DNA from: an uncultured Prevotellaceae bacterium
Lineage (GTDB): Bacteria; Bacteroidota; Bacteroidia; Bacteroidales; Bacteroidaceae
DNA: 64,000 nt
NCBI GenBank assembly: GCA_947307015.1
Contig: CAMZHV010000001.1
Coordinates: 12,846 to 76,845, forward strand
Direction of reading: 5' to 3'
In this document: positions 13,803 through 54,888 of the stretch, in pieces
Position numbering within the stretch: position 1 is the stretch's first letter
How the letters are laid out: the number at the start of each line of letters is the position of its first letter
Notes under the pieces: model-generated
Told to the model about the DNA's origin: nothing
Seen by the model: only the letters and a program-made list of their open reading frames with translations
Database searches by the model: none
Position numbers and translations under genes: made by a program

Positions 13803-14170
13803 TGAGCTACGACTACCAGACTGCCGATTCTGCTCTATATCACATATTGCGTGAAAATGCTGCATACAATAGGAATCACCCCACAGAAGCAGAAGCACTG
13901 CTTTGGGAATTCTTGGGTGCGGATGGACTGGGAGTTACATTCAAAAGCCAACATATTATAGGTGATTATATCGCGGATTTTGTATGTTTGACTTCCAAGT
14001 TAATCGTTGAACTCGACGGTGGATACCATCAACTCGCACAACAGCAAATAAGTGATGAGCAACGTACAGAATGGTTAGAAAGCAGAGGCTTCAAAATCAT
14101 CCGATTCACAAACGAAGAACTATTTCACAACGTTGACAAAGTATTAGATACGATAAAAGATAATCTATAA
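13802..14170 (+). CDS. DUF559 / Vsr-like endonuclease-domain protein
   Basis: 122 aa. DFVCLTSKLIVELDGGYHQ...EQRTEWLESRGFKIIRFTNEEL matches the DUF559 (PD-(D/E)xK, Vsr-like) pattern. TAATG overlaps with the korA stop and with the korB start. Confidence 0.85.
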   Translation: MSYDYQTADSALYHILRENAAYNRNHPTEAEALLWEFLGADGLGVTFKSQHIIGDYIADFVCLTSKLIVELDGGYHQLAQQQISDEQRTEWLESRGFKIIRFTNEELFHNVDKVLDTIKDNL

Positions 14171-15231
14171 TGAATACTAATTCCAATGCAAACGTAGCCC
14201 CCTCGGGGGCCGAAGGGGGGGCCGCTACTTGGATGGCTTCCGATTATAAGAAAGGGCAGCCGAGGTGGTGCCCGGGATGCGGAGATCATTTCTTCCTGGC
14301 ATCTTTGCATAAGGCGCTGGCCGAAATTGGCGTAGCGCCCAAGGACATCGCCGTCATCAGCGGTATCGGTTGCAGCAGTCGTCTGCCCCATTACATGGCC
14401 ACCTACGGCATGAACACCATTCACGGTCGTGCTGCCGCCATCGCCACTGGTGCGAAGGTGACGAATCCCAAGCTGGATGTGTGGCAGATCAGCGGCGACG
14501 GCGACGGCTTAGCCATTGGCGGTAACCATTTCATCCACGCCAACCGCCGAAACATCGACCTGAACATAATCCTGCTGAACAACCGTATCTACGGTTTGAC
14601 GAAGGGTCAGTACTCGCCCACCAGCCCTCGTGGCTTCGTCTCGAAGTCCAGCCCTTATGGCACTGTCGAGGATCCCTTCCGCCCCGCTGAGCTATGCTTT
14701 GGTGCCCGTGGTCATTTCTTCGCTCGTGCCGTGGCCACTGATGCTCCTGGTACCATCGAGGTACTGAAGGCTGCCCATGACCATAAGGGTGCCAGTGTCA
14801 CCGAGATCCTTCAAAATTGCGTCATCTTCAACAATGGTACGCACGATAGCGTCTATGACAAGGACGGCCGCAAGAAGAACGCCATCTACGTGCGTCACGG
14901 CGAGAAGCTCGTCTTTGGCGAGAACAACGAATTCGGTCTCGTGCAGCAGGGCTTTGGTCTCAAGGTCGTGGAGATTGGCAAGGACGGCTACACGCTCGAC
15001 GACGTTCTTGTCCACGATGCACACTGCGAGGACAACACGCTGCAGCTGAAGCTCGCCCTCATGGGCGATGGCGACGGTTTCCCCATCGCCCTCGGCGTCA
15101 TTCGCGATGTGGCAGCGCCCACCTATGATGATGCTGTCACCGCACAGATCGCAGAGGTCAGCGCCGCGAAGAAGTATCACAACTTCGCCGAGCTCCTCGA
15201 AACAAACGATATTTGGGAAGTTCGCGAGTAA
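14170..15231 (+). CDS. korB: 2-oxoglutarate/2-oxoacid:ferredoxin oxidoreductase subunit beta (TPP-binding)
   Basis: 353 aa. WCPGCGDH and GDGDGLAIGGNH motifs. An alternative in-frame ATG at 14233 lies just after the type-B module. Confidence 0.9.
   Translation: MNTNSNANVAPSGAEGGAATWMASDYKKGQPRWCPGCGDHFFLASLHKALAEIGVAPKDIAVISGIGCSSRLPHYMATYGMNTIHGRAAAIATGAKVTNPKLDVWQISGDGDGLAIGGNHFIHANRRNIDLNIILLNNRIYGLTKGQYSPTSPRGFVSKSSPYGTVEDPFRPAELCFGARGHFFARAVATDAPGTIEVLKAAHDHKGASVTEILQNCVIFNNGTHDSVYDKDGRKKNAIYVRHGEKLVFGENNEFGLVQQGFGLKVVEIGKDGYTLDDVLVHDAHCEDNTLQLKLALMGDGDGFPIALGVIRDVAAPTYDDAVTAQIAEVSAAKKYHNFAELLETNDIWEVRE
14194..14223 (-). repeat. Type-B GC module, right end (GTAGCCCCCTCGGGGGC + CGAA + GGGGGGGCC)
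   Basis: Inverted partner of 13526-13560. Resembles the other end of the thrC element (28345-28373). Read as VAPSGAEGGAA if korB starts at 14170. Confidence 0.8.
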
Positions 15232-15238
15232 TTTATTC

Positions 15239-15366
15239 ACAACGAATTTCACGAATTAAACGAATTCAGGTTGCGCAGTGTAAGAATGATCTTCGAATAG
15301 GTGTCATTCGTTATCAATCTTTGCTACACATAGAAAGTAATTCGTAAAATTCGTGTAATTCGTTGT
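15239..15366. repeat. AT-rich inverted-repeat element; each arm is three ACGAATT-type repeats
   Basis: Left arm acaacgaatttcacgaattaaacgaattc (15239-15267). The right arm (15337-15366) is its reverse complement, 26/30 by hand alignment. 69-nt spacer. Confidence 0.7.
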
Positions 15367-21157: not shown

Positions 21158-21916
21158 TCAAGAGGCTTCTGCTTTCAGCAAGGCTTCAGCGATGATGAGG
21201 TCGAAAGGTGTGGTGATCTTGATATTCTCACGGTTGCCATCGACGAGGGTGACGGGATGCCCCAGGGCTTCGACGACAGAGGCATCGTCGGTAAAGGTGT
21301 CGCAGTAGGGCTGCTTGTAGGCTTGGAGAAGGAGGGAGTGCGTGAAGACCTGTGGGGTTTGGACAAGGCGCAGCTTCGAGCGGTCAATGGTAGCGGACAC
21401 CCCCTCCCCAGTGTGAGAGGGAAGAAGTTGGCGCACGGTCTCGACGACAGGGACGACGGGGACGACGGCGGCGTGCTCACGGGCAGCTTCGAAACAACGA
21501 CGGATAACATCAACGGAGACGAAGGGGCGCACGCCGTCGTGGACAGCAACCAAACTCCCCTCCCTCACGGGGGCGGGGGAGAGGCTTCTTAACCCGTTCT
21601 TTACACTATGAAACCGTGTTTCGCCGCCATCGACGATAGTATGTGGCAGGGTGAAAGCGTGCTGACGGCAGAGGTCGCGCCAAAAGTCCTGCTGGTCATG
21701 TGGCAGGACAAGCACGATGCGTATGCCAGAAATAGCACGCTCGAAAGCTTCAAGCGTGTGCATCAGCACGGGACGTCCCCCGATAGGAAGGAACTGCTTA
21801 GGCAGGTCGCTGCCCATCCGCAGTCCTTTGCCTCCGGCAACGATGATGACAGACTCTCCCCCCGCCCTCCCTATTAGGGAGGGAGTAGATTGTTTTGCTA
21901 TTGGATTATCTTCCAT
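21158..21916 (-). CDS. ispD: 2-C-methyl-D-erythritol 4-phosphate cytidylyltransferase
   Basis: 252 aa. [43 protein letters not shown] and LVQTPQVF motifs. The N-terminal 22 aa are encoded by repeat spacer + arm. Confidence 0.9.
21555..21585 (-). repeat. Short type-A variant in frame in ispD
   Basis: Reverse complement GCCTCTCCCCCGCCCCCGTGAGGGAGGGGAG. Translated as [10 protein letters not shown]. Confidence 0.6.
21852..21885 (+). repeat. Type-A module (left arm of the DJ-1|ispD doublet), translated in ispD
   Basis: GACTCTCCCCCCGCCCTCCCTATTAGGGAGGGAG. 33/34 identical to the reverse complement of 21951-21984. Confidence 0.9.
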
Positions 21917-21950
21917 AAAAAGATAATAATCAGTTCTTGTTAGGTAACCG

Positions 21951-21984
21951 CTCCCTCCCTAACAGGGAGGGCGGGGGGAGAGTC
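21951..21984 (-). repeat. Type-A module (right arm of the DJ-1|ispD doublet)
   Basis: CTCCCTCCCTAACAGGGAGGGCGGGGGGAGAGTC. Ends 5 nt from the DJ-1 stop codon. Confidence 0.9.
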
Positions 21985-21989
21985 TGTTT

Positions 21990-22532
21990 TTATCTATACA
22001 ACATCCCCTGTCTGAGCGCGTCGGCGGTGGCCTTGTCCTTCATCATCTCAACGATGGTATAGCCGAACTCGAAGACGGCGGCTGGACCTTTACCGGTGAT
22101 GTATTGTCCGTCAACTTCGACGAGGGCACCGGTGCAGGTGGCTCCCTTGAGCTCGTCCTCGAAGCCGGGATAGCAGGTGGCACGCTTGCCGTCGAGCAGA
22201 CCGATACGTCCAAGCACGAGGGGGGCGGCACAGATAGCTGCTATGGGACGTCCGATGTAGGCGTGGTCGCGGACACGTTCCACGAGGGCGTGACATTCGG
22301 CGAAGTTCTTTGCACCAGGCATACCGCCGGGCAGCACAAGCAGTTCAGCATCGAAGAAGTCGATATCCTTGAGCAGGGCATCACATTCGACGCGGATGCC
22401 ATGAGCACCCGTGATGATGCGCTCGTCGGTGATAGAAACGATCTGCAGGTCGAGGCCTGCGCGGCGGATGATGTCTGCAGTGCCGAGGGCTTCTATTTCC
22501 TCAGTGCCAGTGGTAAAGAATAGATAAATCAT
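21990..22532 (-). CDS. DJ-1/PfpI (ThiJ) family protein
   Basis: 180 aa. LVLPGGMPGA and AAICAAP (nucleophile-elbow Cys) motifs. Confidence 0.9.
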   Translation of the reverse strand: MIYLFFTTGTEEIEALGTADIIRRAGLDLQIVSITDERIITGAHGIRVECDALLKDIDFFDAELLVLPGGMPGAKNFAECHALVERVRDHAYIGRPIAAICAAPLVLGRIGLLDGKRATCYPGFEDELKGATCTGALVEVDGQYITGKGPAAVFEFGYTIVEMMKDKATADALRQGMLYR

Positions 22533-23408: not shown

Positions 23409-23446
23409 ACTATTTATTTGTTTTTTTCGGGTAAATAAGCAAATTA

Positions 23447-23473
23447 TCTATTGTCCATTGTCCATAATCCATT
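23447..23473 (-). repeat. Solo ATTGTCC-heptamer arm related to the argB element
   Basis: tctattgtccattgtccataatccatt; compare 54284-54317. Confidence 0.55.
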
Positions 23474-23482
23474 AAAAAGACG

Positions 23483-27309: not shown

Positions 27310-27342
27310 ATAACGACCTTTGAGAGGGGAAAAGGAGGTTAT
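27310..27342. terminator. Possible bidirectional hairpin between convergent genes
   Basis: ataacgaccttt / aaaggaggttat arms (10/12 complementary), 9-nt loop. Overlaps the thrC stop. Confidence 0.3.
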
Positions 27343-28799
27343 TGCTGGAGGAGGAAAGCTTTGAAGTCGGCAAAATCCTTGCTCATGGCGACCGACTTCT
27401 TCTCGCCGCGCATGAAAGCCTGCAGCTTTTCGGGGATGGGAAGATCGATGCCGAGGATGCGGTCTACGGTGTCCTTGAATTTGGCGGGATGAGCGGTCTC
27501 AAGGAAGACGCCGACTTCGCCGTCTTGCAGCTGCTCTTTCAAGGCGCGATAACCGCACGCGCCGTGAGGATCAAGGATATAACCCGTGCGAGCATAACAA
27601 TCACGCATTGTCTCGGCAATCTGGTCGTCGGTGTAGGTGGCGCCGGAGATAAGGGGCCTCTCCCCCAACCCCTCCCCCGAGAGGGAGGGGAGTGGCTGTG
27701 CATAGCCTCTTTTACTTAACACTTCCATGACATCCTCACGACTGTAGAGGTCGAGGATGCGGGCGAAATTTGAGGGATCACCGACATCCATTGCATTGGC
27801 AATGGTCTGTTTCGAGGCTTTCGGCGTATACACACCTGTCTGGAGGTAGTTGTAGAACACGTCGTTGGCGTTGTTCGCCGCAATGAAACGTTTCACGGGC
27901 AGCCCCATGACGTGGCCGAACAGTGCCGAACAGATATTGCCGAAATTGCCGGAGGGGACGCAGATGACACAATCGGCTGCCCCACCGCCAACCCCTCTTC
28001 TCGTCAGGGAGGGGATAAGTTGCGCGTAAGCATAGAAATAATAAAACGCCTGCGGCAGGAAGCGGGCCACGTTGATGCTGTTGGCCGAGGTGAGGCGCAT
28101 GTGGGTATTCAGCTCCTGATCCATAAACGCCGACTTCACCAGTGCTTGGCAGTCATCGAAGACGCCATCGACCTCAATGGCCGTGATGTTTTGGCCGAGC
28201 GTCGTGAACTGACACTCCTGAATGGGCGACACCTTACCCTTCGGATAGAGCACATAAACATGTATACCCTCCACGCCGAGGAAGCCGTTGGCCACAGCCG
28301 AACCAGTGTCGCCGGAAGTGGCTACGAGTACATTAACCATGGAAGCCCCCCCTACTGCCCCCGAGGGGGCTTCTATTGTTTTGCGATTAGAGGACTTTAC
28401 ATCCGTAGCCCCCTCGGGGGCTGAATGGGGGGCCAACATATACTGAAGCAGGCGTGCCATAAATCTCGCACCCACATCTTTAAAAGCCAGCGTGGGGCCG
28501 TGGAAGAGCTCGAGGGCATAGATATTGTCCTCGACTTTCACGACAGGACAGTCGAAGGAGAGGGTGTCATAGACGATACGACGGAGGGCATCGGCTTCGA
28601 CATCTTCGCCGAAGAAGGCATCAGCGACGCGATAGGCCACCTCCTGGAATGTGAGGCCTGCCATTTCGTCCCAGAACGATTCAGGCAGTTGCTTGATGAC
28701 TTCGGGCATATACAGGCCGCGATCTTCGGCAAGGCCGCGGACGACAGCATCACGCAAAGTAGCGCGGGCAGCGGTATGGTTGGTGGAGTAGTAGAGCAT
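27339..28799 (-). CDS. thrC: Threonine synthase
   Basis: Start moved to MLYYSTNH. FKDVGARFMARLL, ATSGDTGSAVANGF and VPSGNFGN motifs. Three in-frame repeat insertions. Confidence 0.93.
   Translation of the reverse strand: MLYYSTNHTAARATLRDAVVRGLAEDRGLYMPEVIKQLPESFWDEMAGLTFQEVAYRVADAFFGEDVEADALRRIVYDTLSFDCPVVKVEDNIYALELFHGPTLAFKDVGARFMARLLQYMLAPHSAPEGATDVKSSNRKTIEAPSGAVGGASMVNVLVATSGDTGSAVANGFLGVEGIHVYVLYPKGKVSPIQECQFTTLGQNITAIEVDGVFDDCQALVKSAFMDQELNTHMRLTSANSINVARFLPQAFYYFYAYAQLIPSLTRRGVGGGAADCVICVPSGNFGNICSALFGHVMGLPVKRFIAANNANDVFYNYLQTGVYTPKASKQTIANAMDVGDPSNFARILDLYSREDVMEVLSKRGYAQPLPSLSGEGLGERPLISGATYTDDQIAETMRDCYARTGYILDPHGACGYRALKEQLQDGEVGVFLETAHPAKFKDTVDRILGIDLPIPEKLQAFMRGEKKSVAMSKDFADFKAFLLQQ
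27656..27692 (+). repeat. C-tail + hairpin module variant in frame in thrC
   Basis: GCCTCTCCCCCAACCCCTCCCCCGAGAGGGAGGGGAG. Translated as PLPSLSGEGLGERP. Confidence 0.65.
27979..28015 (+). repeat. C-tail + hairpin module variant in frame in thrC
   Basis: GCCCCACCGCCAACCCCTCTTCTCGTCAGGGAGGGGA. Translated as PSLTRRGVGGGA. Confidence 0.6.
28345..28434. mobile_element. 90-nt type-B doublet (REPIN/MITE-like), in frame in thrC
   Basis: Two inverted type-B ends (28345-28373 and 28400-28434) separated by 26 nt. 30 codons (PHSAPEGATDVKSSNRKTIEAPSGAVGGA) inserted between LQYMLA and MVNVLVATSGDTG. Confidence 0.8.
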
Positions 28800-28811
28800 A
28801 CTATAAAAAAA

Positions 28812-28844
28812 CCACCCCAACCTTCCCTGTGAGGGAGGGGGTGG
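28812..28844 (+). repeat. Type-A variant (arm of the apgM-like|thrC doublet)
   Basis: CCACCCCAACCTTCCCTGTGAGGGAGGGGGTGG. Lies 12 nt upstream of the thrC ATG. Confidence 0.7.
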
Positions 28845-28861
28845 AATGATTTGTATAATGG

Positions 28862-30172
28862 TTATTGATTATCTAATGTATCTACTCCCTCCCTCACAGG
28901 GAGGGTAAGGGGTGGGTCTGTCATAAACAACTTAATGAATTCATCGCCTTCGATGAGACCATAGGCGCCTTCGCGGGCAGCATCCTCGTCGAAGGTCTGC
29001 ACACTATCTGGCTCTATGCCGGGGTAGTAGATGGCAAAGGGGATGGGCTCGGCGGTGTGAGTGCGTAGCTCGCAGGGCGTGGGATGGTCGGGTAAAAGAG
29101 CAATGGCGAGGTCATCCGTCATTTCGAACGCATGAAGGATAGGCTGAATGAGCCGATGGTCGAGGTCTTCGATGGTCTGGAGCTTGAGGGGGACTGAACC
29201 ATCGTGACCAGCCTCGTCGCTGGCTTCGACGTGGAGATAGACGAAGTCATCACCGCTGCGAAGGGCCTCGATGGCAGCCTGTGCCTTACCCTCGAAGTTA
29301 GTGTCATAGAGACCTGTAGCACCAGGGACGTTGATGACGCGCAACCCGGCATAATGTCCGATGCCGCGGATGAGGTCTACGGCCGTGATCACGGAGCCAC
29401 GACGAATCTGCGGGAAGCGTTCGGTGAGCGGCACCATCTGCGGACGATAGCCGCCGCCCCATGGCCAGATGCTCGAAGCCATATCTTTACCCTCGCGCGC
29501 GCGTTCTTTATTTAATTCATGCAAAGGCAGAAGTTCTTGGGAACGGCGAATGAGGTCGCATAGCAGGTCGGCGGTCTCAGCGGGGGACAGGACCTCTCTT
29601 TGCTTCCCCTCAAAGGGGAGGGTGGAATCTTCAGCGCAGGTATCTGCCGAGGGGACCTTGTCGCGCCATGTCTGAAGGGGCACATCGTGTGGCGGTGTAC
29701 ATTTAAGGTGCTTGTTGCCGCCTTTGATGACCAACAGGTGACGGTACTGCACGCCCGTATAGAAATGTACGCGGTCGTTGGCTAAGTGTTCGTTGAGGTA
29801 TCGGATGAGGACGTCGCCTTCCTCCGTTTCGAGGCGTCCGCAGGAGTGGTTCTTGATGATGTCACCCTCGATGCAAACGAGGTTACAGCGTAGGGCAAGG
29901 TCACCTTCTTCCAGTTCCACGCCTATGCTGGCGGCTTCCAGCGGTCCACGACCCTCGTAAACGACGTGTTGGTCGTAGCCCATGATGCTGCTGTTGGCCA
30001 CTTCACTACCCGGATGAAAACCATCGGGAATGGTCTTCAACAATCCGCAACGACCATTACGCGCCAACCAGTCCATGGCGGGCGTGTCGGCGTATTGAAG
30101 GAGTGTCTTGTCACCGAGTGAAGGCACGTGCCAGTCGGCCATGCCGTCGCCAAGGATGATTAGATGTTTCAT
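28862..30172 (-). CDS. Cofactor-independent phosphoglycerate mutase-like (apgM family) protein; probable non-canonical homoserine kinase of the thr operon
   Basis: 436 aa. MKHLIILGDGMAD... metalloenzyme-superfamily N-terminus. Sits between thrA and thrC. The C-terminus runs into a repeat arm. Confidence 0.8.
   Translation of the reverse strand: MKHLIILGDGMADWHVPSLGDKTLLQYADTPAMDWLARNGRCGLLKTIPDGFHPGSEVANSSIMGYDQHVVYEGRGPLEAASIGVELEEGDLALRCNLVCIEGDIIKNHSCGRLETEEGDVLIRYLNEHLANDRVHFYTGVQYRHLLVIKGGNKHLKCTPPHDVPLQTWRDKVPSADTCAEDSTLPFEGKQREVLSPAETADLLCDLIRRSQELLPLHELNKERAREGKDMASSIWPWGGGYRPQMVPLTERFPQIRRGSVITAVDLIRGIGHYAGLRVINVPGATGLYDTNFEGKAQAAIEALRSGDDFVYLHVEASDEAGHDGSVPLKLQTIEDLDHRLIQPILHAFEMTDDLAIALLPDHPTPCELRTHTAEPIPFAIYYPGIEPDSVQTFDEDAAREGAYGLIEGDEFIKLFMTDPPLTLPVREGVDTLDNQ
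28885..28918 (-). repeat. Type-A module (arm of the apgM-like|thrC doublet), forms the C-terminus of the apgM-like protein
   Basis: Reverse complement GACCCACCCCTTACCCTCCCTGTGAGGGAGGGAG. Translated as DPPLTLPVREGV. Confidence 0.85.
29592..29624 (+). repeat. Hairpin module variant in frame in the apgM-like gene
   Basis: CCTCTCTTTGCTTCCCCTCAAAGGGGAGGGTGG. Translated as STLPFEGKQRE. Confidence 0.5.
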
Positions 30173-32700: not shown

Positions 32701-34656
32701 TCAAGAGGCAGCGGCCTCCTGCGGCGTCGAAAGCGCGATTTCCTCTTCCTCCATCATCTGATGGAGCACGCGGCCCACGACGCTGTCGGGGATGTCTGGG
32801 AAATGGAAGTCGAGGAATGATGTCGGCTTCTGCTCGGCAACGAAGGCGAGGATGCGCTGGCGCACGAAAGCGTCGTCAATGCGCGGCAGCGGGCTCCGCT
32901 CGGTGCAGTTGTCGCAATGTCCGCAGTCTTGAGCATCCTTCTCGCCGAAGTAACGCAGGAGGTAGCGGCTGTGGCATTCCGAGGTCTCGAGGTAGCCGAT
33001 CATCGTCTGAATGCGTTGTTCGAGTTCGCGCTTGCGGTCGCGATAAACGGATGGCGGCAGCACGATGTCGTCACTCTCGACGCGCCGCTGTCTGAAGGTG
33101 ATATAGGGGATGAACTTACGCGGCACGAACTGCAGGATATGCCGGCGGCTGAGCTCCACGAGCTGCTCGCTGACCTCTGCCTCACCTACGCTTAGGGCGT
33201 GGGCTATCTCGCCTTCGTCGATGTAGGCATACTCGCTGAAGATGCCTGTACACGTCCGCAGCAGGTGCTGCAACACGCGCTCCATCAGGGGCGGAAGATG
33301 ATAGGTGTAGAGCTCTTCGCGGTGGCAGCTCATCATCACGCGGCTGTGGTTTTCCTCCGCATCGGCCCATTCGATATAGCCGGCTCGCGACAGCAGCTGC
33401 AAGGCGTTGTAAGCCCGCACGGGAAAATGGTGGAACGTGCGACAGAACTCCTCCAGATTGAACTCTCGCGTGATGCCAAAGCCGTCGCCCATGGCTAACT
33501 GCAGGAAATAGCAGGCATCCTCGTAGACCTTCCTGACGTAATCCTCTGGCGGGTAGGTGTCTTCGATGCGGCGGCGTAGCACAGCGATGGAGCGGCTGTC
33601 GTAGAGAAGCACGGCATGAGCCTGCTGGCCATCGCGGCCGGCACGCCCTGCCTCTTGGAAATACGCTTCGGGGGAGTCGGGGACGTCGGTGTGGACGATG
33701 AGCCGCACGTCGGCCTTGTCAATACCCATGCCAAAGGCGTTTGTGGCCACCATCACGCGGATCTCGCCGTGCTGCCACGCCGCCGCCCGCTCGTTCTTCT
33801 CGCGATTCGTCAGGGCGGCATGGTAGTGAGTTGCCGTGATGCCCTGCGACACGAGCCACGAGGCCAGTTCGCGCGTAGCCTGACGGCTGCGGGTATAGAC
33901 GATGGCAGAACCGGGCACGCGGATAAGCAATTCCTGCAGCTCCTGTTCACGCGACTGTCGGATGCGGCGGACGGAATAGATCAGGTTCTTGCGTTCGAAG
34001 CTCATCCGCTTGACATTAGGCTCACGGAAGCCTAATTGCCGTTGGATATCTTCGACGACGGGCGGTGTGGCGGTGGCCGTCAGGGCAAGCACTGGCGCGT
34101 CGGGCAGCAGCTTGCGGATTTGGGAAATCTCGGTGTAAGACGGGCGGAAGTCGTAACCCCATTGCGAGATGCAGTGGGCCTCGTCCACCGTGATGAAGCT
34201 TACCTGCATGTGTCTGAGCTTGGCCTGAAAAAGCTCCGAGGACAGGCGCTCGGGCGAGACATAGAGGAATTTGTAATTGCCAAAAATGCAGTTCTCCAAC
34301 GCCGTAATCACCTCGTCGCGCGTCATGCCCGTATAGACGGCAGTGGCCTTGATGCCTTTCTCGCGGAGGTGCATCACCTGATCCTTCATCAAGGAGATCA
34401 GCGGGCTGATGACCAGGCACAACCCCTCCTGCGCCAATGCCGGCACCTGAAAGGTGATGCTCTTGCCGCCGCCCGTAGGCATAAGCCCTAAGGTATCCCT
34501 TCCCGCCCCAATACTCTCAATGATGTCCTGCTGAATACCACGGAAGGAAGAGAAACCGAAATAATGGTGTAAGATAGAACAATAAACAGACTCTCCCCCC
34601 GCCCTCCCTATCAGGGAGGGAGCAGTCACATGCGCCAGTTGCTCCTTTCCGTTCAT
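32701..34656 (-). CDS. recQ: RecQ-family ATP-dependent DNA helicase
   Basis: 651 aa. FRGIQQDII (Q motif), MPTGGGKS, DEAHCISQWGYDFRP, ATNAFGMGIDK and QEAGRAGRDG motifs. The N-terminal 23 aa are encoded by spacer + repeat arm. Confidence 0.92.
   Translation of the reverse strand: MNGKEQLAHVTAPSLIGRAGGESVYCSILHHYFGFSSFRGIQQDIIESIGAGRDTLGLMPTGGGKSITFQVPALAQEGLCLVISPLISLMKDQVMHLREKGIKATAVYTGMTRDEVITALENCIFGNYKFLYVSPERLSSELFQAKLRHMQVSFITVDEAHCISQWGYDFRPSYTEISQIRKLLPDAPVLALTATATPPVVEDIQRQLGFREPNVKRMSFERKNLIYSVRRIRQSREQELQELLIRVPGSAIVYTRSRQATRELASWLVSQGITATHYHAALTNREKNERAAAWQHGEIRVMVATNAFGMGIDKADVRLIVHTDVPDSPEAYFQEAGRAGRDGQQAHAVLLYDSRSIAVLRRRIEDTYPPEDYVRKVYEDACYFLQLAMGDGFGITREFNLEEFCRTFHHFPVRAYNALQLLSRAGYIEWADAEENHSRVMMSCHREELYTYHLPPLMERVLQHLLRTCTGIFSEYAYIDEGEIAHALSVGEAEVSEQLVELSRRHILQFVPRKFIPYITFRQRRVESDDIVLPPSVYRDRKRELEQRIQTMIGYLETSECHSRYLLRYFGEKDAQDCGHCDNCTERSPLPRIDDAFVRQRILAFVAEQKPTSFLDFHFPDIPDSVVGRVLHQMMEEEEIALSTPQEAAAS
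34589..34629 (+). repeat. Type-A module (arm of the recJ|recQ doublet), translated in recQ
   Basis: GACTCTCCCCCCGCCCTCCCTATCAGGGAGGGAGCAGTCAC. 39/41 complementary to 34689-34729. Confidence 0.9.
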
Positions 34657-34688
34657 TAACTATCAAAAAATGAAAACAAATCTTGAAG

Positions 34689-34729
34689 GTGACTGCTCCC
34701 TCCCTTTTAGGGAGGGCGGGGGGAGAGTC
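34689..34729 (-). repeat. Type-A module (arm of the recJ|recQ doublet)
   Basis: GTGACTGCTCCCTCCCTTTTAGGGAGGGCGGGGGGAGAGTC. Ends 6 nt from the recJ stop. Confidence 0.9.
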
Positions 34730-34735
34730 TTCTCC

Positions 34736-36457
34736 TTATTCCTCGCTCGGCCTGATATCCTCAATCTGCAACTGCACCTCGCCCCGCTTATGCGTGTTCT
34801 CCTCCACCGTGTAGCAGATGTCGAACGCCCGGCGACTCTTGATGAAGCGAGCCTGCGAGCTCTGGCCGAAAGCGATGCCGCTGACGACGTTGTGGCTCTT
34901 GTTGTCCACCAGCTCCAGCTTGATGTGTTCCTGGTGATGACCTACCACCTTGCTGGTGCCGTAGTCGTACACATGCTCCGTGCAGAACAGCGGCTTCTGA
35001 TTGTCCGGGCCGAAAGGTTGGAACTTGCGCAGGTCGTTGAAGAAGCGATGGCTGATGTCCTTGAAGTCCAACATTCCGTCGATATTCAGGTCGGGCTGGA
35101 TCTGCGATTCGAGGATGTTCTCATTGACATATTCCTCGAAGCGGCGCTTGAATTCGGGCACGTTCTCCACCTTCATCGATAGACCGGCAGCGTAGGTGTG
35201 ACCGCCGAAGTTCTCTAAGAGGTCGCGGCAGCTGTCGATGGCGCGGTAGACATCGAAGCCTCCGACGGAGCGTGCCGAGCCCGTGGCCATATCGTCGGTA
35301 CGGGTGAGTACGACAGCCGGACGGCAGTACACCTCTGTCAGTCGCGAGGCCACGATGCCGATGACGCCTTTGTGCCACTCCTCGTTGTAGATGACGATGG
35401 CGCGCTGCTCGTGGTTGTGGTCGAGCTTCTCCACGATGTCGTTGGCTTCCTGCGTCATCTCCTTGTCGAGGTCTTTGCGCTGGTCGTTATAGGCGTTAAT
35501 CTGCAGGGCCATGCGATGTGCACGGTACGGGTCACGCTCCACAAGCAGGGCCACGGCTTCGCTGCCCTTCTGCATACGTCCCGAGGCGTTGATGCGCGGG
35601 CCGATCTTAAAAATGATGTCGCTCATCGTGATCTCGCGATCCAGCAGGCCGCAGATCTCGATGATAGCCTTCAGCCCCACGCTCGCCTTCGAGTTGATCT
35701 GCTTCAGGCCGTGATAGGCCAGCACGCGGTTCTCGCCTAAGATAGGTACGATGTCCGAGGCGATGCTCACGGCGCACAAGTCCAGCAGCGGCACCAACTG
35801 CGAGAAGGGGATACCGTTGTCGATGGCAAAAGCCTGCATCAGCTTGAAGCCCACACCGCAGCCCGACAGGTGTTCGTAGGGGTAAGTGGCATCTACGCGC
35901 TTGGCGTTGAGGATAGCCACGGCGGGCGGCAGCTCATCATCCGGCACGTGGTGGTCGCAGATGATGAAGTCGATGCCTAACTCCTTGGCGTAGGCAATCT
36001 CCTCGTTGGCCTTAATGCCACAGTCCAGGACGATGATAAGTCCCACGCCCGTCTCATGAGCGAAGTCCACGCCCTGTTTGCTCACGCCATACCCCTCCTC
36101 GTAGCGGTCGGGGATGTAAAAATCGATGTTGGTTGTGAACTGTTGCAGGAAACGGTAGACCAAAGCTACCGCCGTGCAACCATCCACGTCGTAGTCTCCA
36201 TACACTAAGATACGTTCCTTGCGTCCGAGAGCCAGGTTCAGCCGATCGACAGCAACCCGCATATCACGGAAAAGAAAAGGATCAAGCAGTTCGTTGAGCT
36301 GCGGCCGGAAGAAACGTCGCGCCTCCAACGAATTGGTGATGCCGCGATCCAGTAGTAGCAGGCCGAGAGCGGGGTGAATACCCACGTCGGCGGCCAAGGC
36401 CTCAGCTGCTTCCTGTCGTTCGGGTGTAGGAGGTTCGTAATTCCATTTGTAGTTCAT
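34736..36457 (-). CDS. recJ: Single-stranded-DNA-specific exonuclease RecJ
   Basis: 573 aa. DHH motifs (VYGDYDVDG, DCG, ICDHH) and DHHA1 (GGHTYAAG). Confidence 0.93.
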   Translation of the reverse strand: MNYKWNYEPPTPERQEAAEALAADVGIHPALGLLLLDRGITNSLEARRFFRPQLNELLDPFLFRDMRVAVDRLNLALGRKERILVYGDYDVDGCTAVALVYRFLQQFTTNIDFYIPDRYEEGYGVSKQGVDFAHETGVGLIIVLDCGIKANEEIAYAKELGIDFIICDHHVPDDELPPAVAILNAKRVDATYPYEHLSGCGVGFKLMQAFAIDNGIPFSQLVPLLDLCAVSIASDIVPILGENRVLAYHGLKQINSKASVGLKAIIEICGLLDREITMSDIIFKIGPRINASGRMQKGSEAVALLVERDPYRAHRMALQINAYNDQRKDLDKEMTQEANDIVEKLDHNHEQRAIVIYNEEWHKGVIGIVASRLTEVYCRPAVVLTRTDDMATGSARSVGGFDVYRAIDSCRDLLENFGGHTYAAGLSMKVENVPEFKRRFEEYVNENILESQIQPDLNIDGMLDFKDISHRFFNDLRKFQPFGPDNQKPLFCTEHVYDYGTSKVVGHHQEHIKLELVDNKSHNVVSGIAFGQSSQARFIKSRRAFDICYTVEENTHKRGEVQLQIEDIRPSEE

Positions 36458-44967: not shown

Positions 44968-45237
44968 ATGTCCAAAGAAAGCTTTTGGCGCCGTGCCATC
45001 AACCTCTACTATGATGGTTTCCGACAGATGACGCTGGGTCGCACGCTCTGGCTCATCATCGGCATCAAGCTTTTCGTCATCTTTGTTATCCTCAAAATCT
45101 TCTTTTTCCCCGATTTCATCGGGCAAAATGCCGAAAAAGGCAAGGAAGCAGAGTTCGTGGCTGGGGAGTTGAGTAAAAGAACAGACCCACCTCCTGCCCT
45201 CCCTGTGAGGGAGGGTGATAATACCTGTCAAGAATAA
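44968..45237 (+). CDS. DUF4492-like small membrane protein preceding cydAB
   Basis: 89 aa. WRRAINLYYDGFRQMTLGRTLWLIIGIKLFVIF, position upstream of cydA. The C-terminal part is encoded by a repeat arm. Confidence 0.75.
   Translation: MSKESFWRRAINLYYDGFRQMTLGRTLWLIIGIKLFVIFVILKIFFFPDFIGQNAEKGKEAEFVAGELSKRTDPPPALPVREGDNTCQE
45184..45217 (+). repeat. Type-A module (left arm of the DUF4492|cydA doublet), translated
   Basis: GACCCACCTCCTGCCCTCCCTGTGAGGGAGGGTG. Translated as [11 protein letters not shown]. Confidence 0.85.
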
Positions 45238-45297
45238 TAAACTAATTAACAATTTAAAAGAATGACCCTAATAGCCTCCTTTACTCTAAACATTCAA

Positions 45298-45330
45298 CTC
45301 TCCCCATATAGGGGGAGCGGGGAGGGGGTC
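45298..45330 (-). repeat. C-tail module variant (right arm of the DUF4492|cydA doublet)
   Basis: CTCTCCCCATATAGGGGGAGCGGGGAGGGGGTC. Ends 10 nt before the cydA ATG. Confidence 0.6.
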
Positions 45331-45340
45331 TTTTAAACCT

Positions 45341-46900
45341 ATGAACCTTTTATCTATCGACCCTGCAGCCATCGACTGGGCGCGAGCGCAGTTTGCCCTC
45401 ACGGCCATCTATCACTGGCTCTTTGTCCCATTAACTTTGGGAGTTGGCCTCATCATGGCCATCATTGAAACAAAGTACTACCGCACAGGTGACGCGTTCT
45501 GGCGTCGTGCGGCACAATTCTGGCAGCGCCTCTTTGGCATCAACTTCGCCATGGGCGTAGCCACGGGCATCATCCTCGAGTTCGAGTTTGGCACTAACTG
45601 GTCCAACTACTCCTGGTTTGTCGGCGACATCTTCGGTGCGCCTTTAGCCATCGAGGGTATCGTGGCGTTCTTCATGGAATCGACCTTCGTGGCCGTTATG
45701 TATTTCGGTTGGGAGAAAGTGTCGCGAGGCTTCCACTTGGCTTCGACTTGGCTCACCTGGCTCGGCGCCACCATCTCGGCGTGGTGGATCCTCGTCGCCA
45801 ACTCATGGATGCAATATCCCGTGGGCTGCGAATTCAACCCCGACACCATGCGCAATGAGATGACTTCGTTCCTCGATGTGGCTCTCTCGCCCTTTGCCAT
45901 CGACAAGTTCTGCCACACCGTCATCTCATCTTGGATTGTCGGCGCCGTCTTCGTAGTGGCTGTTTCGGCATGGTACCTCCTCAAGAAACGCGAAGCCGAG
46001 CGCGCGCTGGCACTCAAGAGCTTACGCATCGGAGCCATCGTGGGACTCATCGCTGCTGTGCTGGCTGGTGCTACGGGCCACAAGTCGGCACAGACAGTCG
46101 CCGCCGTGCAACCCATGAAGCTCGCCGCCATGGAGGCGCTCTACGACGGCGGCAACGCTCAGGGACTCAAAATTATAGAAGGCATCGAGGTGCCCTACGC
46201 CCTCTCCTTCATGGCTACCAACGACTTCAACGGCTTCGTGCCCGGTATTAATGATATATTAAAAGGTTACACGCGCGAGGACGGCACAGTAGAACCGTCA
46301 GCTCAGGAGAAGCGCGAGCGTGGGCAGATGGCCATCACAGCCCTCGAGAACTACCGCCGCCTCAAGGCTGACGAGAAAACCTTTGCCGACCAGGATCCCG
46401 ACGGCTACATCACCGCTGCCAAGGAAAAACAGCTGGCTATACTCAAAGAGAATATGCCCTACTTCGGCTACGGGTATATCAAGGACGAGGCCGAATTGGT
46501 GCCTCCCGTGGCAGTCAATTTCTGGGCTTTCCGCGTGATGGTTGGCTTCGGCGGTCTCTTCATCCTCTTCTTCGCCTACATTCTTTTCCTCAACTGGCGC
46601 AAAAAAGATATTTCCTCGATGAAATGGCTACTTTGGCTCAGCATCATCCTCGTGCCCTGCGCATACATCTGCTCTGAAAGCGGCTGGCTCGTGGCAGAGT
46701 TTGGACGCCAGCCCTGGACGATACAAGATATGCTACCCGTCGCTGCCTCCGTCTCGGACATCGGTTCTGGCGCCGTCGCCACGACCTTCTGGCTTTTCCT
46801 CGCGCTCTTCACCACGATGCTTGCCGTGGAAATCAATATCATGTTGAAACAGATTAAAAAGGGAGATCCCCTCCTCACTCCCCCTCAAGGGGGAGAGTAG
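45341..46900 (+). CDS. cydA: Cytochrome bd ubiquinol oxidase subunit I
   Basis: 519 aa. ARAQFALTAIYHWLFVPLTLG and GRQPWTIQDMLP motifs. The last 11 codons are a repeat arm. Confidence 0.95.
   Translation: MNLLSIDPAAIDWARAQFALTAIYHWLFVPLTLGVGLIMAIIETKYYRTGDAFWRRAAQFWQRLFGINFAMGVATGIILEFEFGTNWSNYSWFVGDIFGAPLAIEGIVAFFMESTFVAVMYFGWEKVSRGFHLASTWLTWLGATISAWWILVANSWMQYPVGCEFNPDTMRNEMTSFLDVALSPFAIDKFCHTVISSWIVGAVFVVAVSAWYLLKKREAERALALKSLRIGAIVGLIAAVLAGATGHKSAQTVAAVQPMKLAAMEALYDGGNAQGLKIIEGIEVPYALSFMATNDFNGFVPGINDILKGYTREDGTVEPSAQEKRERGQMAITALENYRRLKADEKTFADQDPDGYITAAKEKQLAILKENMPYFGYGYIKDEAELVPPVAVNFWAFRVMVGFGGLFILFFAYILFLNWRKKDISSMKWLLWLSIILVPCAYICSESGWLVAEFGRQPWTIQDMLPVAASVSDIGSGAVATTFWLFLALFTTMLAVEINIMLKQIKKGDPLLTPPQGGE
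46865..46897 (+). repeat. C-tail module variant (left arm of the cydA|cydB doublet), forms the cydA C-terminus
   Basis: GATCCCCTCCTCACTCCCCCTCAAGGGGGAGAG. Translated as DPLLTPPQGGE, then stop. Confidence 0.65.
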
Positions 46901-46965
46901 TCACCTCTAAGAATCGATTCAAACTACTCATCTCTCATCTTTAATCTCTCATCTTTTCTCATATT

Positions 46966-48228
46966 ATGATTACTTTTAGTTCTCTCATAAGTCTATTACA
47001 AACCGCCCTTCCCATTGCGGGGGAGCAGGAAGGGTGGCTGTCTTATTCCTTTCTCCAACACTATTGGTGCTTCGTTGTCGCACTGCTCGGCGCCATCCTC
47101 GTGTTCCTGCTCTTCGTCCAGGGTGCCAACTCTGTAGCCGGCAGCCTTGGATACACAGAGGAGGGCCGTCGCCTCGTCTATAACTCCACGGGCCGCAAGT
47201 GGGAGTTCACCTTCACCACGCTCGTCACCTTTGGCGGTGCTTTCTTTGCATCATATCCCCTGTTCTACAGTACTTCATTCGGCAGTGCTTATTGGCTGTG
47301 GATGCTCATCTTGTTCACTTTCGTGGTTCAGGCGGTGAGCTACGAGTTCCAGAACAAACTTGGCAACTTCTTCGGCCCTAAACCCTTCCAGTTCTGCCTT
47401 ACCCTCAACGGCATCCTCGGCCCGCTACTCCTCGGCGGCGCCGTTGCCACTTTCTTCGAAGGTAGTAATTTTATTGTAGAAAAAGGAAACCTCATCACTG
47501 GGGCTGGGGGTGGGTCTCTCGTTATCTCCCACTGGGCCAACGCTTCTCACGGTCTTGACGCCCTACTCAACCCCTGGGTGCTTGTTTTCGGCTTTGCTGT
47601 CGTCTTCTTGGCTCGCACGTTAGGCATCCTCTACGTCATGAACAATGTCGATGACGAGGACATCCGCAGTCGTGGCAGTGTGCGTCTTATCGGCGCCGCC
47701 GTGCCCTTCGTCATCCTCTTCGTGGCCTACCTCGTACACTTGCTCCTTAAGGACGGCTATGCCTACGACCCCACCACCGGTGTTATCTTCATGGAGCCCT
47801 ATAAGTACCTGCACAACCTGCTCGACATGTGGTACCTCCTTATTATATTATTAACAGGTGTAGTCCTCGTGCTCTACGGCATCGCCATCGAAATCTTCGG
47901 TCGGTCAGATAAATTGTCAAATCGTAAATGGTTAAATAGTCAAATCAACAAGGGTATCTGGCCTGCTGGTATCGGTACCGTGCTTACCGTGCTCGCCCTG
48001 CTGCTTTGCTCCGCTTGGAACAACACCGCCTACTACCCCTCTACCGCTGACCTGCAGTCGTCGCTCACCATGCAAAACTCCTGCAGCAGCGAATTCACCC
48101 TACGCACCATGTTCTACGTCTCTCTCCTCGTCCCCTTCGTTCTGGCTTACATCATCTACTGCTGGCGAGCCATTGATGCTAAAAAGATCACCAAGGAGGA
48201 GATCATGGAAGGAGAGCATACGTATTGA
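46966..48228 (+). CDS. cydB: Cytochrome bd ubiquinol oxidase subunit II
   Basis: 420 aa. FLQHYWCFVVALLGAILVFLLFVQG is a typical CydB N-terminus. It is preceded by 24 codons from spacer + repeat arm that supply the only usable ATG. Confidence 0.9.
   Translation: MITFSSLISLLQTALPIAGEQEGWLSYSFLQHYWCFVVALLGAILVFLLFVQGANSVAGSLGYTEEGRRLVYNSTGRKWEFTFTTLVTFGGAFFASYPLFYSTSFGSAYWLWMLILFTFVVQAVSYEFQNKLGNFFGPKPFQFCLTLNGILGPLLLGGAVATFFEGSNFIVEKGNLITGAGGGSLVISHWANASHGLDALLNPWVLVFGFAVVFLARTLGILYVMNNVDDEDIRSRGSVRLIGAAVPFVILFVAYLVHLLLKDGYAYDPTTGVIFMEPYKYLHNLLDMWYLLIILLTGVVLVLYGIAIEIFGRSDKLSNRKWLNSQINKGIWPAGIGTVLTVLALLLCSAWNNTAYYPSTADLQSSLTMQNSCSSEFTLRTMFYVSLLVPFVLAYIIYCWRAIDAKKITKEEIMEGEHTY
47003..47037 (-). 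repeat. C-tail module variant (right arm of the cydA|cydB doublet), translated in cydB
   Basis: CCGCCCTTCCCATTGCGGGGGAGCAGGAAGGGTGG. Translated as ALPIAGEQEGW. Confidence 0.6.
47907..47945. repeat. AT-rich tandem NNNAAAT repeats in frame in cydB
   Basis: gtcaaat cgtaaat ggttaaat agtcaaat. Translated as DKLSNRKWLNSQI. Resembles the AAATCGTAAA motif upstream of pdxJ and the DJ-1 gene. Confidence 0.45.
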
Positions 48229-48803
48229 TGATTGTACGATTGCCGACGGCATATCTGGGGCCTGTGTCGTGGTATGCGGCATGGGCGAAGGCCGACGCAG
48301 TGATCGTGGAACAGCACGAGCACTACGTCAAGCAGACTTGGCGCAATCGCTGCCGCATCGCTATGCCCGACGGACCGCAGGACCTGATCGTACCCGTGGA
48401 GGCGGCAGCCAATCACACGCCTATCCGCGACATACGCCTCAGCGACCACGGCAACTGGCGCCACCACCACTGGAGCGCCCTGCGCACGGCCTACGGTAAG
48501 AGCCCCTTTTTTGAATACTACGCCGACGACTTCGCGCCCCTCTATGCACAGCGCTTCACCTTTCTCATCGATTTCAATGAGGCGCTGCGCGAGGTCGTCG
48601 GGCAGTTGTTGGATCTCGATGTTCCCGTACGCCGCAGTACGGCCTACGCCCCCACAGTACCATTCGCCGACTTGCCCGTGCCGGCAAAACATTACTATCA
48701 AGTCTTCAACCAACGTTTAGGCTTCCTGCCTAACCTAAGCATCGCCGACCTTCTCTTCAACCTCGGTCCTGAAGGCCTCCTCTACTTGACGTGTACTGAA
48801 TAA
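48225..48803 (+). CDS. WbqC-family protein
   Basis: 192 aa. PTAYLGPVSWY...QTWRNRCRI...HW.ALRTAYGKSPFFEYY pattern. ATGA overlap with cydB. Confidence 0.75.
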   Translation: MMIVRLPTAYLGPVSWYAAWAKADAVIVEQHEHYVKQTWRNRCRIAMPDGPQDLIVPVEAAANHTPIRDIRLSDHGNWRHHHWSALRTAYGKSPFFEYYADDFAPLYAQRFTFLIDFNEALREVVGQLLDLDVPVRRSTAYAPTVPFADLPVPAKHYYQVFNQRLGFLPNLSIADLLFNLGPEGLLYLTCTE

Positions 48804-48853
48804 GCTGACACTTTCTTGATTTCAAGAGTGTGTCAGCTTATTCAGTACACGTC
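48788..48853. terminator. 66-nt near-perfect palindrome (24-bp perfect arms) between convergent genes; probable bidirectional terminator
   Basis: gacgtgtactgaataagctgacac / gtgtcagcttattcagtacacgtc. The 18-nt spacer contains tcttga-tt-tcaaga. The left arm encodes the last 5 codons and stop of the WbqC-like gene. Confidence 0.5.
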
Positions 48854-48875
48854 AGATTATAGGTCAAGGGAAAGG

Positions 48876-53989: not shown

Positions 53990-54888
53990 TATATCACTGT
54001 GCCGCCCTGAAGGTCATGGATGTTGGTGATGCGGACGCTGGCGACCCCTGCTCGCAAAGCTGCAAAAGCGTTCTCGAGCTTGGGGATCATTCCACCTGCA
54101 ATCGTACCGTCAGCCACAAAAGCGCGGAACTCAGGTTCTGTGAGATGCGGGATGAGAGTCGAGGAATCGGCGGGGTCGCGCATGACGCCGGGGAGCTCGA
54201 AGCAGAAGGTTAAAGTTAATGGACAATGGACAATGGACAATGGGCAATGAGTCCCATGCTTGTTCACTACTATTGCAGAAGCGTCATTGTCCATTGTCCA
54301 TTGTCCATTGTCGCATTTTGCCAAAGCGACAGCTACCGTCTGTGCCATCGTGTCGGCATTGATATTAAGCATATTGCCCTGACCGTCGTGCGTGAGGGGT
54401 GCGATGACGGGGGTGATGCCCATCTGGAGTAGTTGCAGGAGTTGGGTGCCGTCGGCACTGTCCACATCGCCAACAAAGCCGAAGTCGATGCCTTCGGGGG
54501 TGATTGGACGGCGATGGGCACGGATGAGGTTGAGGTCGGCACCGGTGAGTCCTAAGGCATTGACACCACGTGCCTGCAATTGTGCTACGATATTCTTATT
54601 GACAAGTCCGCCATAGACCATCGTCACAACGCGCAGCATCGCTGCATCCGTGATGCGGCGGCCGTCTACCATCTGACTCTCAATGCCAAGCTGTGCCGCT
54701 AACTTCGTCGCCGAGCGTCCACCGCCATGCACAAGCACCTTAGGCCCTTCAATTTTGACGAATTCATCGAGGAGAACGGCCAACTGCTCAGGGTCTTCAA
54801 CAACAGCGCCACCAACTTTTATCAAAGAAATGCTCCGACCTACGTGCGTGGGCTGGGACTCTTCTTTATTCAAGATACGTGTATCCAT
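53989..54888 (-). CDS. argB: Acetylglutamate kinase
   Basis: Start at MDTRILNK; the longer ORF to 55164 overlaps speA. IKVGGAVV, LVHGGG, NINADT and GGMIPK motifs. Carries a ~100-nt in-frame insertion. Confidence 0.88.
   Translation of the reverse strand: MDTRILNKEESQPTHVGRSISLIKVGGAVVEDPEQLAVLLDEFVKIEGPKVLVHGGGRSATKLAAQLGIESQMVDGRRITDAAMLRVVTMVYGGLVNKNIVAQLQARGVNALGLTGADLNLIRAHRRPITPEGIDFGFVGDVDSADGTQLLQLLQMGITPVIAPLTHDGQGNMLNINADTMAQTVAVALAKCDNGQWTMDNDASAIVVNKHGTHCPLSIVHCPLTLTFCFELPGVMRDPADSSTLIPHLTEPEFRAFVADGTIAGGMIPKLENAFAALRAGVASVRITNIHDLQGGTVI
54218..54317. mobile_element. MITE-like palindromic element with arms of four GGACAAT heptamers, in frame in argB
   Basis: Left arm aatggacaatggacaatggacaatgggcaatga (54218-54250). 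The right arm (54284-54317) is its reverse complement apart from 2-3 positions. 33-nt spacer. Confidence 0.8.

Follow-up and report, generated by a model that had tools for sequence, protein, structure and literature searches.

We describe a palindromic element at the junction of cydA and cydB, the genes for subunits I and II of the cytochrome bd oxidase, in a 64,000-nt stretch of DNA from an uncultured Prevotellaceae bacterium (GenBank assembly GCA_947307015.1, contig CAMZHV010000001.1, positions 12,846 to 76,845, forward strand; hereafter "the window", with a GC content of 54%, to whose positions all coordinates refer). The element, a 177-nt segment at 46864-47040, is probably a non-coding copy, similar to a miniature inverted-repeat transposable element (a MITE), of a palindromic repeat unit, and as such it supplied the end of cydA together with the start codon and leader of cydB. 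The repeat unit itself is found widely among rumen Prevotellaceae. In its basics the phenomenon is known already, as palindromic repeats translated within genes are established for the Rickettsia palindromic elements (RPEs) and for some families of repetitive extragenic palindromes (REPs) (PMC3733652; PMC10969869). What is less ordinary is that, within an essential respiratory operon, a single insertion would end one subunit gene and begin the next, that the native cydB start is lost, and that lineages diverged to the level of species have kept this arrangement. Several genes show the same takeover, for which initiation independent of Shine-Dalgarno pairing in Bacteroidota is a plausible lineage-specific reason.

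The element consists of two inverted GC-rich hairpin arms of ~42 nt around a spacer of 92 nt and 28% GC, and it contains no open reading frame (ORF) of its own (Table 1). A profile built from 19 arms of the sub-family that we call type B, all of them at loci other than the junction, matches arm 1 on the minus strand over nearly its full length (46906-46864, E = 5.7e-11, 39 bits) and arm 2 on the plus strand (46999-47039, E = 1.2e-4); because the two match in opposite orientation, they are inverted copies of one repeat. The junction arms of two other carriers, L001 and L192, are much cleaner (E ~1e-10 to 1e-12). An earlier note, drawn up from the window sequence, had proposed an inverted doublet at this junction, and the profile matches bear it out; the arm limits given there (46865-46897 and ~47003-47037) prove too narrow, and the spacer, rightly called AT-rich, measures 92 nt instead of 105 nt once the longer arms are taken into account. 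The window contains six occurrences, with up to three mismatches allowed, of the arm-1 hairpin core CTCCCCC-TCAA-GGGGGAG, where 0.03 would be expected. Folding of the junction RNA is better than that of its shuffles (z = -2.8), with arm 2 forming a 10-bp stem (CCGCCCUUCC/GGAAGGGUGG). The arms were not paired by an inverted-repeat search of the junction with a seed of 7, and were recognised only once the type-B sub-family had been found, and Rfam at the gathering threshold has no family match at the junction. Neither a plus-strand terminator nor a sigma-70 or Bacteroidetes-type (TAnnTTTG) promoter was found there, so that an independent cydB transcript is unsupported and co-transcription with cydA is simplest. 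Within the spacer a 14-nt unit (ATCTCTCATCTTTA) is duplicated in tandem (46930-46956), and its copy number varies in minisatellite-like fashion among the near-identical contigs L002, L190 and L191; the L002 junction has an additional CAACTTGT-type array.

On the upstream side, CydA matches its Pfam family over positions 1-417 of the 418 in the profile, that is, over its full length. All that follows Gly508, the stop codon included, aligns to the repeat: the protein ends ...KKG-DPLLTPPQGGE-TAG within arm 1 (C-terminal stretch ...KKGDPLLTPPQGGE), and the TAG belongs to the common AGTAG variant of the inner flank of the arm. The ORF, the end of the Pfam domain at residue 508 and the repeat alignment agree with the earlier note that cydA ends inside the arm. 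Its further statement that the CydA C-terminus had been replaced stands as far as the repeat-derived tail is concerned, but what was replaced is a short and naturally variable tail, not a conserved C-terminus: the CydA proteins of relatives carry 1-13 variable residues past KKG (for instance PEL or PEYSNE before the stop).

CydB likewise matches its family over the full profile (positions 1-301 of 302). From the Pfam limits, residue 508 in CydA and residue 30 in CydB, it follows that the 11-residue tail and the 24-residue leader lie outside the conserved proteins. The cydB frame is shut upstream by the TAA at 46942-46944, and a scan for start codons as far as this stop leaves ATG 46966 as the sole ATG, GTG or TTG before the conserved first helix, just as the earlier note had singled out this ATG. 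From there the frame runs through the inverted arm to a CTG at 47038, which is the in-frame codon 25, and the N-terminus as read is MITFSSLISLLQTALPIAGEQEGW-LSYSFLQHYW. That both CydA and CydB would carry repeat-derived termini is supported by these alignments and frames. Upstream of ATG 46966 the mean pairing probability is 0.20 and the AT content 70%, and the base at -3 is A. Initiation in Bacteroidota takes place without Shine-Dalgarno pairing, and low structure between about -20 and +20 and an A at -3 are favourable to it (PMC6847099). The front of the leader is hydrophobic (its first 17 residues have a mean Kyte-Doolittle hydropathy of 1.55), and the leader is net negative, with no Lys or Arg and two acidic residues. 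In solved structures of bd oxidases the CydB N-terminus is on the periplasmic side, a location that a leader without positive charges would suit. We considered whether the leader MITFSSL is a duplicate of the native start MITYSFL of some relatives, and rejected this; the same leader is found on the CydA of L003, and it matches the 3' untranslated region (UTR) of a nuclease-encoding repeat unit described below.

We compared the cydA/cydB junction across 79 relatives, a check that the earlier note had itself put forward. The closest cydB relatives are rumen metagenome-assembled genomes (MAGs), and the window is likewise from a rumen Prevotellaceae genome. At the codon aligned with CTG 47038, 68 of the 79 have ATG, and 8 more have ATT, CTT or CTA with an ATG exactly one codon upstream; many of the junctions are ATGA overlaps. 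The comparison thus supports a takeover of the cydB start and places the native ATG where the earlier note had expected it. Among the 79, only L001 and L002 share the architecture of the window, and a metagenome scan added the carriers L190 and L191 (of the L002 type) and L192 (of the L001 type). A protein-database search with the first 81 CydB residues returned only fragments from the native position and no extra carriers, and the exact CydB sequence has no match in the contig index.

The carriers differ in an informative way. The leader reads MITFSSLIS-LLQTALPIAGEQEGW- in the window and MITHSSLIS-LLQTALPLEGEQGGG- in both L001 and L192, followed by codon 25 as CTG in the window and L001 and as TTA in L192; in L002, L190 and L191 it reads MLTISSLIS-, followed by CTC. 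In these last three, arm 2 is gone through an exact 45-nt (15-codon) in-frame gap, with the ATG kept. As codon 25 varies among synonymous leucine codons, of which TTA and CTC are non-initiating, it behaves as an internal leucine and not as a start. Between the window and L001, 62 of the 72 positions from the ATG through arm 2 are identical (86%), with zero gaps, whereas the segment from the cydA stop to the ATG is unalignable (37 matches, 25 gap positions). Across the three carrier lineages, cydB shows 16-18% nucleotide divergence and 88-93% amino-acid identity, with ~29-37% of the conserved codons synonymously changed. This pattern indicates a gene under purifying selection and an open frame kept over substantial time.

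The arms belong to a larger family, which in the window takes the form of GC-rich hairpin arms in inverted pairs ("doublets") around AT-rich spacers. Scanning a genome collection with the consensus of the type-A arm, we found more than 108 stretches, all from MAGs of rumen or horse-gut Prevotellaceae/'Bacteroidaceae'. The type-A consensus, from 261 arms, is AAAAGAAGACTCTCCCCCCG-CCCTCCCTGTTAGGGAGGG-AGCGGTTACCTTTGAA; its flank, 3' of the stem, is AGCRG (AGCGG/AGCAG), with GTAG only in variants. The same arms form 74 left-right doublets and zero right-left pairs. The two hairpin loops of one doublet are exact complements, and loops vary from doublet to doublet; each doublet therefore behaves, and is copied, as a single palindromic unit. 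The type-B sub-family (...GGTGACCACTCTCCCCC-TTGA-GGGGGAG-CGGGGAGGGGGTCT) was found by searching with the cydB leader plus arm. Around the 74 doublets, an open frame of at least 100 codons leaves the element on 92 sides, with its first ATG in the spacer in 41 and with the whole element read through in 22, all three counts being upper bounds because spurious ORFs were not removed. Directly outside the doublet ends there are often partial copies of the terminal ~14 nt (GACTCTCCCCCC / GGGGGGAGAGTC; L104, L108, L112, L114, L119 and L147), which could be the footprint of an insertion or copying mechanism.

A nuclease gene accompanies these arms. In eight genomes, left and right type-A arms bracket the same 121-aa ORF, which matches DUF559 (PF04480, E = 4.6e-33). 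A further 80 loci encode relatives of this protein at 52-100% identity, including loci of the cultured Xylanibacter brevis ATCC 19188 and Prevotella lacticifex JCM 34664, and 71 of them could be analyzed. Inverted GC-rich arms lie within 200 nt on both sides in 65 of these 71 (scores of 10-65, where shuffled controls never exceed 9), and across the Prevotellaceae/Bacteroidales loci the type of arm sequence co-varies with the nuclease clade. Among solved structures, the protein comes closest to 3HRL (E = 4e-16) and to the homing endonuclease I-Bth0305I (3R3P, E = 0.0018). The link to the junction is provided by L211, a locus from the same MAG as L001, where type-B arms stand on either side of a DUF559 gene. 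The left flank of this unit is identical to window 46864-46917 at 47 of 54 positions, so that the left end of the junction spacer, to ~46917, is still homologous to the DUF559 unit, and the cydB leader together with arm 2 aligns to the 3'UTR and right arm of L211. A copy of a type-B DUF559 unit that lacks the ORF is therefore the best reading of the junction element. The longer unit with the same ends, present at L211 and elsewhere, encodes a putative nuclease of the DUF559 family, which may act on its cognate arms. A literature search on DUF559 with repeats or mobile elements, and on REPs or MITEs in Prevotella, found no description of such a system, within incomplete coverage. The DUF559 loci considered are L193-L272 and L101, L122, L127, L133, L134, L164, L173, L183 and L211, and the bracketed ones have an organisation like that of the REPtrons discussed below; L164 is a frameshifted DUF559 copy, and L166 has two arms in the same orientation.

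We propose the following course of events. The full unit would consist of a left arm, the gene of the 121-aa DUF559 (Vsr-fold) endonuclease and a right arm, of which the junction copy would retain ~54 nt at the left and ~60 nt at the right around an AT-rich centre. This element would have replaced the original, tight cydA/cydB junction in the ancestry of three or more lineages of species rank. cydA would now run 11 codons into the left arm and stop at the TAG of the AGTAG flank, while the native cydB ATG would have been lost and ribosomes would take ATG 46966, in the unstructured spacer, as their start and translate on across the right arm. The 24-residue leader would thereby have been added and joined to native CydB at Leu25, its 3' part deriving from the 3'UTR of the DUF559 unit. 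A GC-rich hairpin set against the old start should disfavour initiation there, and the ATG in the AT-rich spacer should be favoured; such a takeover would work in Bacteroidota because initiation is Shine-Dalgarno-independent, which favours unpaired A-rich leaders. The extended CydA and CydB are presumably made and functional, and we infer that the DUF559 nuclease spreads the repeats and that the events took the order proposed.

Could translation of cydB instead begin where arm 2 ends or beyond it, from CTG 47038 or some other non-AUG codon, with arm 2 as 5'UTR and an N-terminus of native length? The CTG stands exactly at the native start position, the constraint on the leader peptide is only modest, and CTG allows low-efficiency initiation in some bacteria. 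Yet the codon is a non-initiator in L192 and in L002, L190 and L191, a result that goes against the one outcome the earlier note had named as fatal to its own reading; the frame from the ATG is open in every carrier, those with the 45-nt in-frame deletion included; and the CTG lies within the 10-bp GC stem of arm 2, with a mean upstream pairing probability of 0.94, T at -3 and an upstream AT content of 25%. The next in-frame near-cognate or canonical starts, from 47083 onwards, would cut into the conserved first helix and remove part of it. We therefore consider a start at or beyond the arm highly improbable; judging from the repeat alignment, the CTG most likely comes from the GTCTG with which the repeat itself terminates and not from a mutated ATG. 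It is harder still to believe that the hairpins serve the cydAB mRNA as native regulatory structures (an attenuator, a stabiliser or a processing site) and that their overlap with the coding sequences is incidental. The better-than-shuffled folding of the junction RNA would fit, and REP hairpins near stop codons in E. coli do affect mRNA stability and translation, but 76 of the 79 relatives have no such structure at the junction, the same arms stand at unrelated loci in many genomes, and relatives that are 95% identical differ in whether they have the element. A regulatory side-effect of inserted hairpins is compatible with the origin that we favour.

Two further alternatives concern what spreads the arms. 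They might be REPs, or REP doublets (REPINs), mobilised by a REP-associated tyrosine transposase (RAYT, an IS200/IS605-type Y1 transposase), with the association with DUF559 incidental. Short GC-rich palindromes in inverted doublets, dispersed and often by the 3' ends of ORFs, are what has been described for REPs (PMC3733652), and the AGTAG variant does contain GTAG. The family consensus flank, however, is AGCRG and not GTAG, and it lies 3' of the stem, while the gene bracketed by arms is DUF559 in 65 of 71 loci and not a Y1 transposase; no RAYT turned up at the loci analyzed, whole genomes not having been searched for one. We give this origin very little weight. Unlikely, to a lesser degree, is an inverted order of events, in which the doublets came first and the nuclease gene inserted into pre-existing doublets: DUF559 would be a free-standing homing-endonuclease gene entering the middle of a doublet with the palindrome as its target, the doublets would be spread by something else, and the doublet at the junction would never have been a deletion derivative. 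The fold family is reported to include a proven homing endonuclease (I-Bth0305I, 3R3P; PMC3239194). Homing-endonuclease genes typically lie inside their own target site, and this order predicts the inner flanks common to units and doublets equally well. What this order leaves unexplained is the spread of hundreds of ORF-less doublets, and it sits badly with loops that are complementary within doublets and different between them, which indicate copying of the doublet as a unit. The co-variation of arm type with nuclease clade also counts against it, though co-evolving partners would fit either model.

Several observations weigh against the course of events that we propose. The type-A profile is not significant on the junction arms (E = 0.2-0.7), and arm 2 of the window is decayed. 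We found no target-site duplications, flank matches of 2-4 nt being at chance level in 65 doublets, and the nuclease gene could, as just discussed, be the later arrival. Every genome involved is a MAG or a metagenome contig. The sequence of the leader is only modestly constrained, with about as many non-synonymous as synonymous changes, and constraint on the hairpin could also conserve arm 2. Finally, cydB of L049 is 94-95% identical to that of L001 and L192, yet has the native ATG and no junction element. It follows from this near identity that loss or recombination has occurred as well, and the state of the L049 junction (~2930-3001) suggests recombination or precise loss: its native start, ATG AGT TAC, is identical to that of the more distant L008, and L049 shares the internal arm insertions of L001/L192.

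Several known systems resemble parts of this picture. RPEs are short palindromes inserted in frame in unrelated housekeeping genes and translated, N-terminal cases included (PMC10969869; PMC3733652), much as cydA, cydB, threonine synthase, ispD, recQ and other genes carry the present arms in frame. The likeness is one of behaviour only. RPEs occur in a different phylum, are probably unrelated in sequence and have no known associated nuclease gene, and the element at the junction goes beyond internal insertion in that it also gives a stop and a start. Di Nocera et al. cautioned that N-terminal repeat cases are often not translated (PMC3733652; PMC10969869); the cydB case survives this caution because there is no downstream start and the native start is gone. 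In the REP/REPIN systems with their RAYTs (REPtrons), inverted doublets of GC-rich palindromes act as units, the cognate gene is flanked by repeats and the repeat type co-varies with the protein, and REPs sit preferentially by ORF 3' ends and sometimes inside ORFs (PMC3733652). The present arms share with REPs the form of dispersed 20-40 bp GC-rich palindromes in inverted doublets, but they lack a conserved 5' GTAG or CGTC tag, the bracketed gene encodes a DUF559 nuclease of the PD-(D/E)XK type and not an HUH/Y1 transposase, and the hosts are Bacteroidota.

Bacterial MITEs (Correia/NEMIS, ERIC, BOX, Nezha) are small non-coding elements with terminal inverted repeats that can form in-frame fusions or alter the expression of flanking genes (PMC10969869). 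The junction element is likewise small, non-coding and bounded by inverted repeats; unlike MITEs, it has no target-site duplication, and its putative autonomous partner encodes a Vsr-fold nuclease and not a DDE transposase. The DUF559 protein falls in the same fold family as the Vsr-like/EDxHD homing endonucleases (I-Bth0305I; 'fractured genes'), members of which are described as selfish nuclease genes inside or between host coding sequences (PMC3239194, PMC2677866). Splicing removes those genes, which are housed in group I introns or between split inteins, whereas the gene here is free-standing between palindromic arms and its ORF-less copies would be translated into host proteins.

A bolder idea is that of a previously undescribed class of selfish element in rumen Prevotellaceae, which we advance only tentatively, at somewhat less than an even chance. 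A DUF559 nuclease gene with its cognate arms would be the analogue of RAYT-REP built on a different enzyme, and the ORF-less doublets would be portable intercistronic cassettes that repeatedly rewrite the ends of essential proteins (CydA, CydB, IspD, RecQ, DUF4492). Such cassettes could land within genes or on tight junctions, since most frames are open through the arms and the AT-rich centre offers a start that is independent of Shine-Dalgarno pairing. If the nuclease does mobilise the repeats, DUF559 would gain a testable role and the REP-RAYT paradigm a second enzyme class. There is also a bearing on the annotation of gene starts in Prevotella MAGs, where N-terminal extensions of this kind might be dismissed as miscalls.

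Similar arrangements are found at other genes. Upstream of cydA, the tail of the DUF4492 gene reads through the left arm of a second operon doublet, and the cydA ATG lies 7 nt past the right arm. This doublet is a hybrid, with a type-A-like left arm and a type-B right arm, and at the two junctions of the operon in the window three of the four gene ends are repeat-derived. In L003 the DUF4492 protein ends ..SKRADWQ-stop. CydA of both L001 and L003 starts in the spacer of the upstream doublet, and the leaders (MLSLLLTSLPLGGEQGGG... and MTILTSLISLLQVAIPEQGG...) are homologous at the DNA level to the CydB leader of the window. On the minus strand, at 21842-21994 and 34577-34741, a DJ-1/PfpI gene and a RecJ gene stop at the outer edge of one arm, and the genes that follow them, ispD (ATG 21916) and recQ, read through the other arm.

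Table 1. Positions of the junction element, the genes beside it and related features in the window.
Feature	Position	Strand	Basis or remark
cydA, cytochrome bd oxidase subunit I, 519 aa	45341-46900	+	ORF; Pfam PF01654, E = 5e-159, residues 13-508
Repeat-derived CydA tail, codons 509-519 (DPLLTPPQGGE) and TAG 46898-46900	46865-46900	+	Outside Pfam domain; tails of relatives unrelated and short
Left arm, type B: AGATCCCCTCCTCA + CTCCCCC-TCAA-GGGGGAG (46878-46895) + AGTAGTCACCT	46864-46906	+	Type-B profile; L211 match
AT-rich spacer, 28% GC	46907-46998	+	Holds TAA 46942-46944 and cydB ATG 46966
cydB, cytochrome bd oxidase subunit II, 420 aa counted from ATG 46966	46966-48228	+	ORF; Pfam PF02322, E = 1e-59, residues 30-402
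Repeat-derived CydB leader, 24 codons: MITFSSLISLLQTALPIAGEQEGW	46966-47037	+	Sole canonical start; Pfam domain from residue 30; L001 and L211 homology
Right arm, type B, decayed: inner flank TTACAAACCGCC + CTTCCCATTGCGGGGGAG + CAGGAAGGGTGGCTG	46999-47040	+	Type-B profile; RNA fold
cydB codon 25, CTG (Leu)	47038-47040	+	Aligned with start ATG of relatives; inside terminal GTCTG of repeat
Arm remnant in cydB, GGGGCTGGGGGTGGGTCTCTC, encoding ..TGAGGGSL..	47501-47520	+	Intact in-frame arm at this place in L001, L049 and L192
Second operon doublet, between DUF4492 gene (44968-45237) and cydA	45177-45334	+	
ispD	21158-21916	-	ATG in doublet spacer; reads through arm into conserved motif; no start codon between
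recQ	32701-34656	-	ATG 34656 in doublet spacer; no start codon past arm
DUF559 gene of the window	13802-14170		PF04480, E = 9e-31; arms 13520-13556 / 14193-14229

Arms also lie within genes. In-frame arms occupy loops of CydA and CydB in L001 (2585-2661 and 3536-3573) and at the equivalent places in L049 and L192, where they encode RPTPNPSREGGELLPITGEVGRG in CydA and LPSLTGGVGGG in CydB. Threonine synthase of the window (27339-28820) contains an in-frame f-type doublet (28345-28434) that adds ~30 residues just before the VLVATSGDTGSA motif, with a further single arm in frame at 27655-27695. The neighbouring ApgM-type phosphoglycerate mutase (28862-30172) ends after reading through an arm (..TDPPLTLPVREGVDTLDNQ-stop), and a short doublet (2041-2110) lies inside a 1434-aa ORF (100-4404).

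The DUF559 gene of the window stands between two genes of a 2-oxoacid:ferredoxin oxidoreductase, one of the alpha/gamma type (11913-13802) and one for the TPP-binding beta subunit (14170-15231). Its arms belong to a second family (GGCCCCCC..GCCCCC-loop-GGGGGC) and are 89% complementary. The upstream arm lies inside the first oxidoreductase ORF and the downstream arm in the first codons of the second, which also has a later ATG (..WMASDYKK).

Short repeats of other kinds are present as well. The junctions of L010, L029, L036, L039, L041, L049, L051 and L065 carry AT-rich short repeats, either tandem heptamers (AAATTGA or AGTTGAA) or inverted AACGAATT/AATTCGT arrays, and an AATTCGT-type inverted array is also found in the window at 15239-15366. 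GACAATG-type tandem and inverted arrays lie at 54216-54312 and 23431-23475, and a 33-nt palindrome, 94% complementary, is located at 48787-48854 between a WbqC-like gene and a convergent 893-aa ORF.

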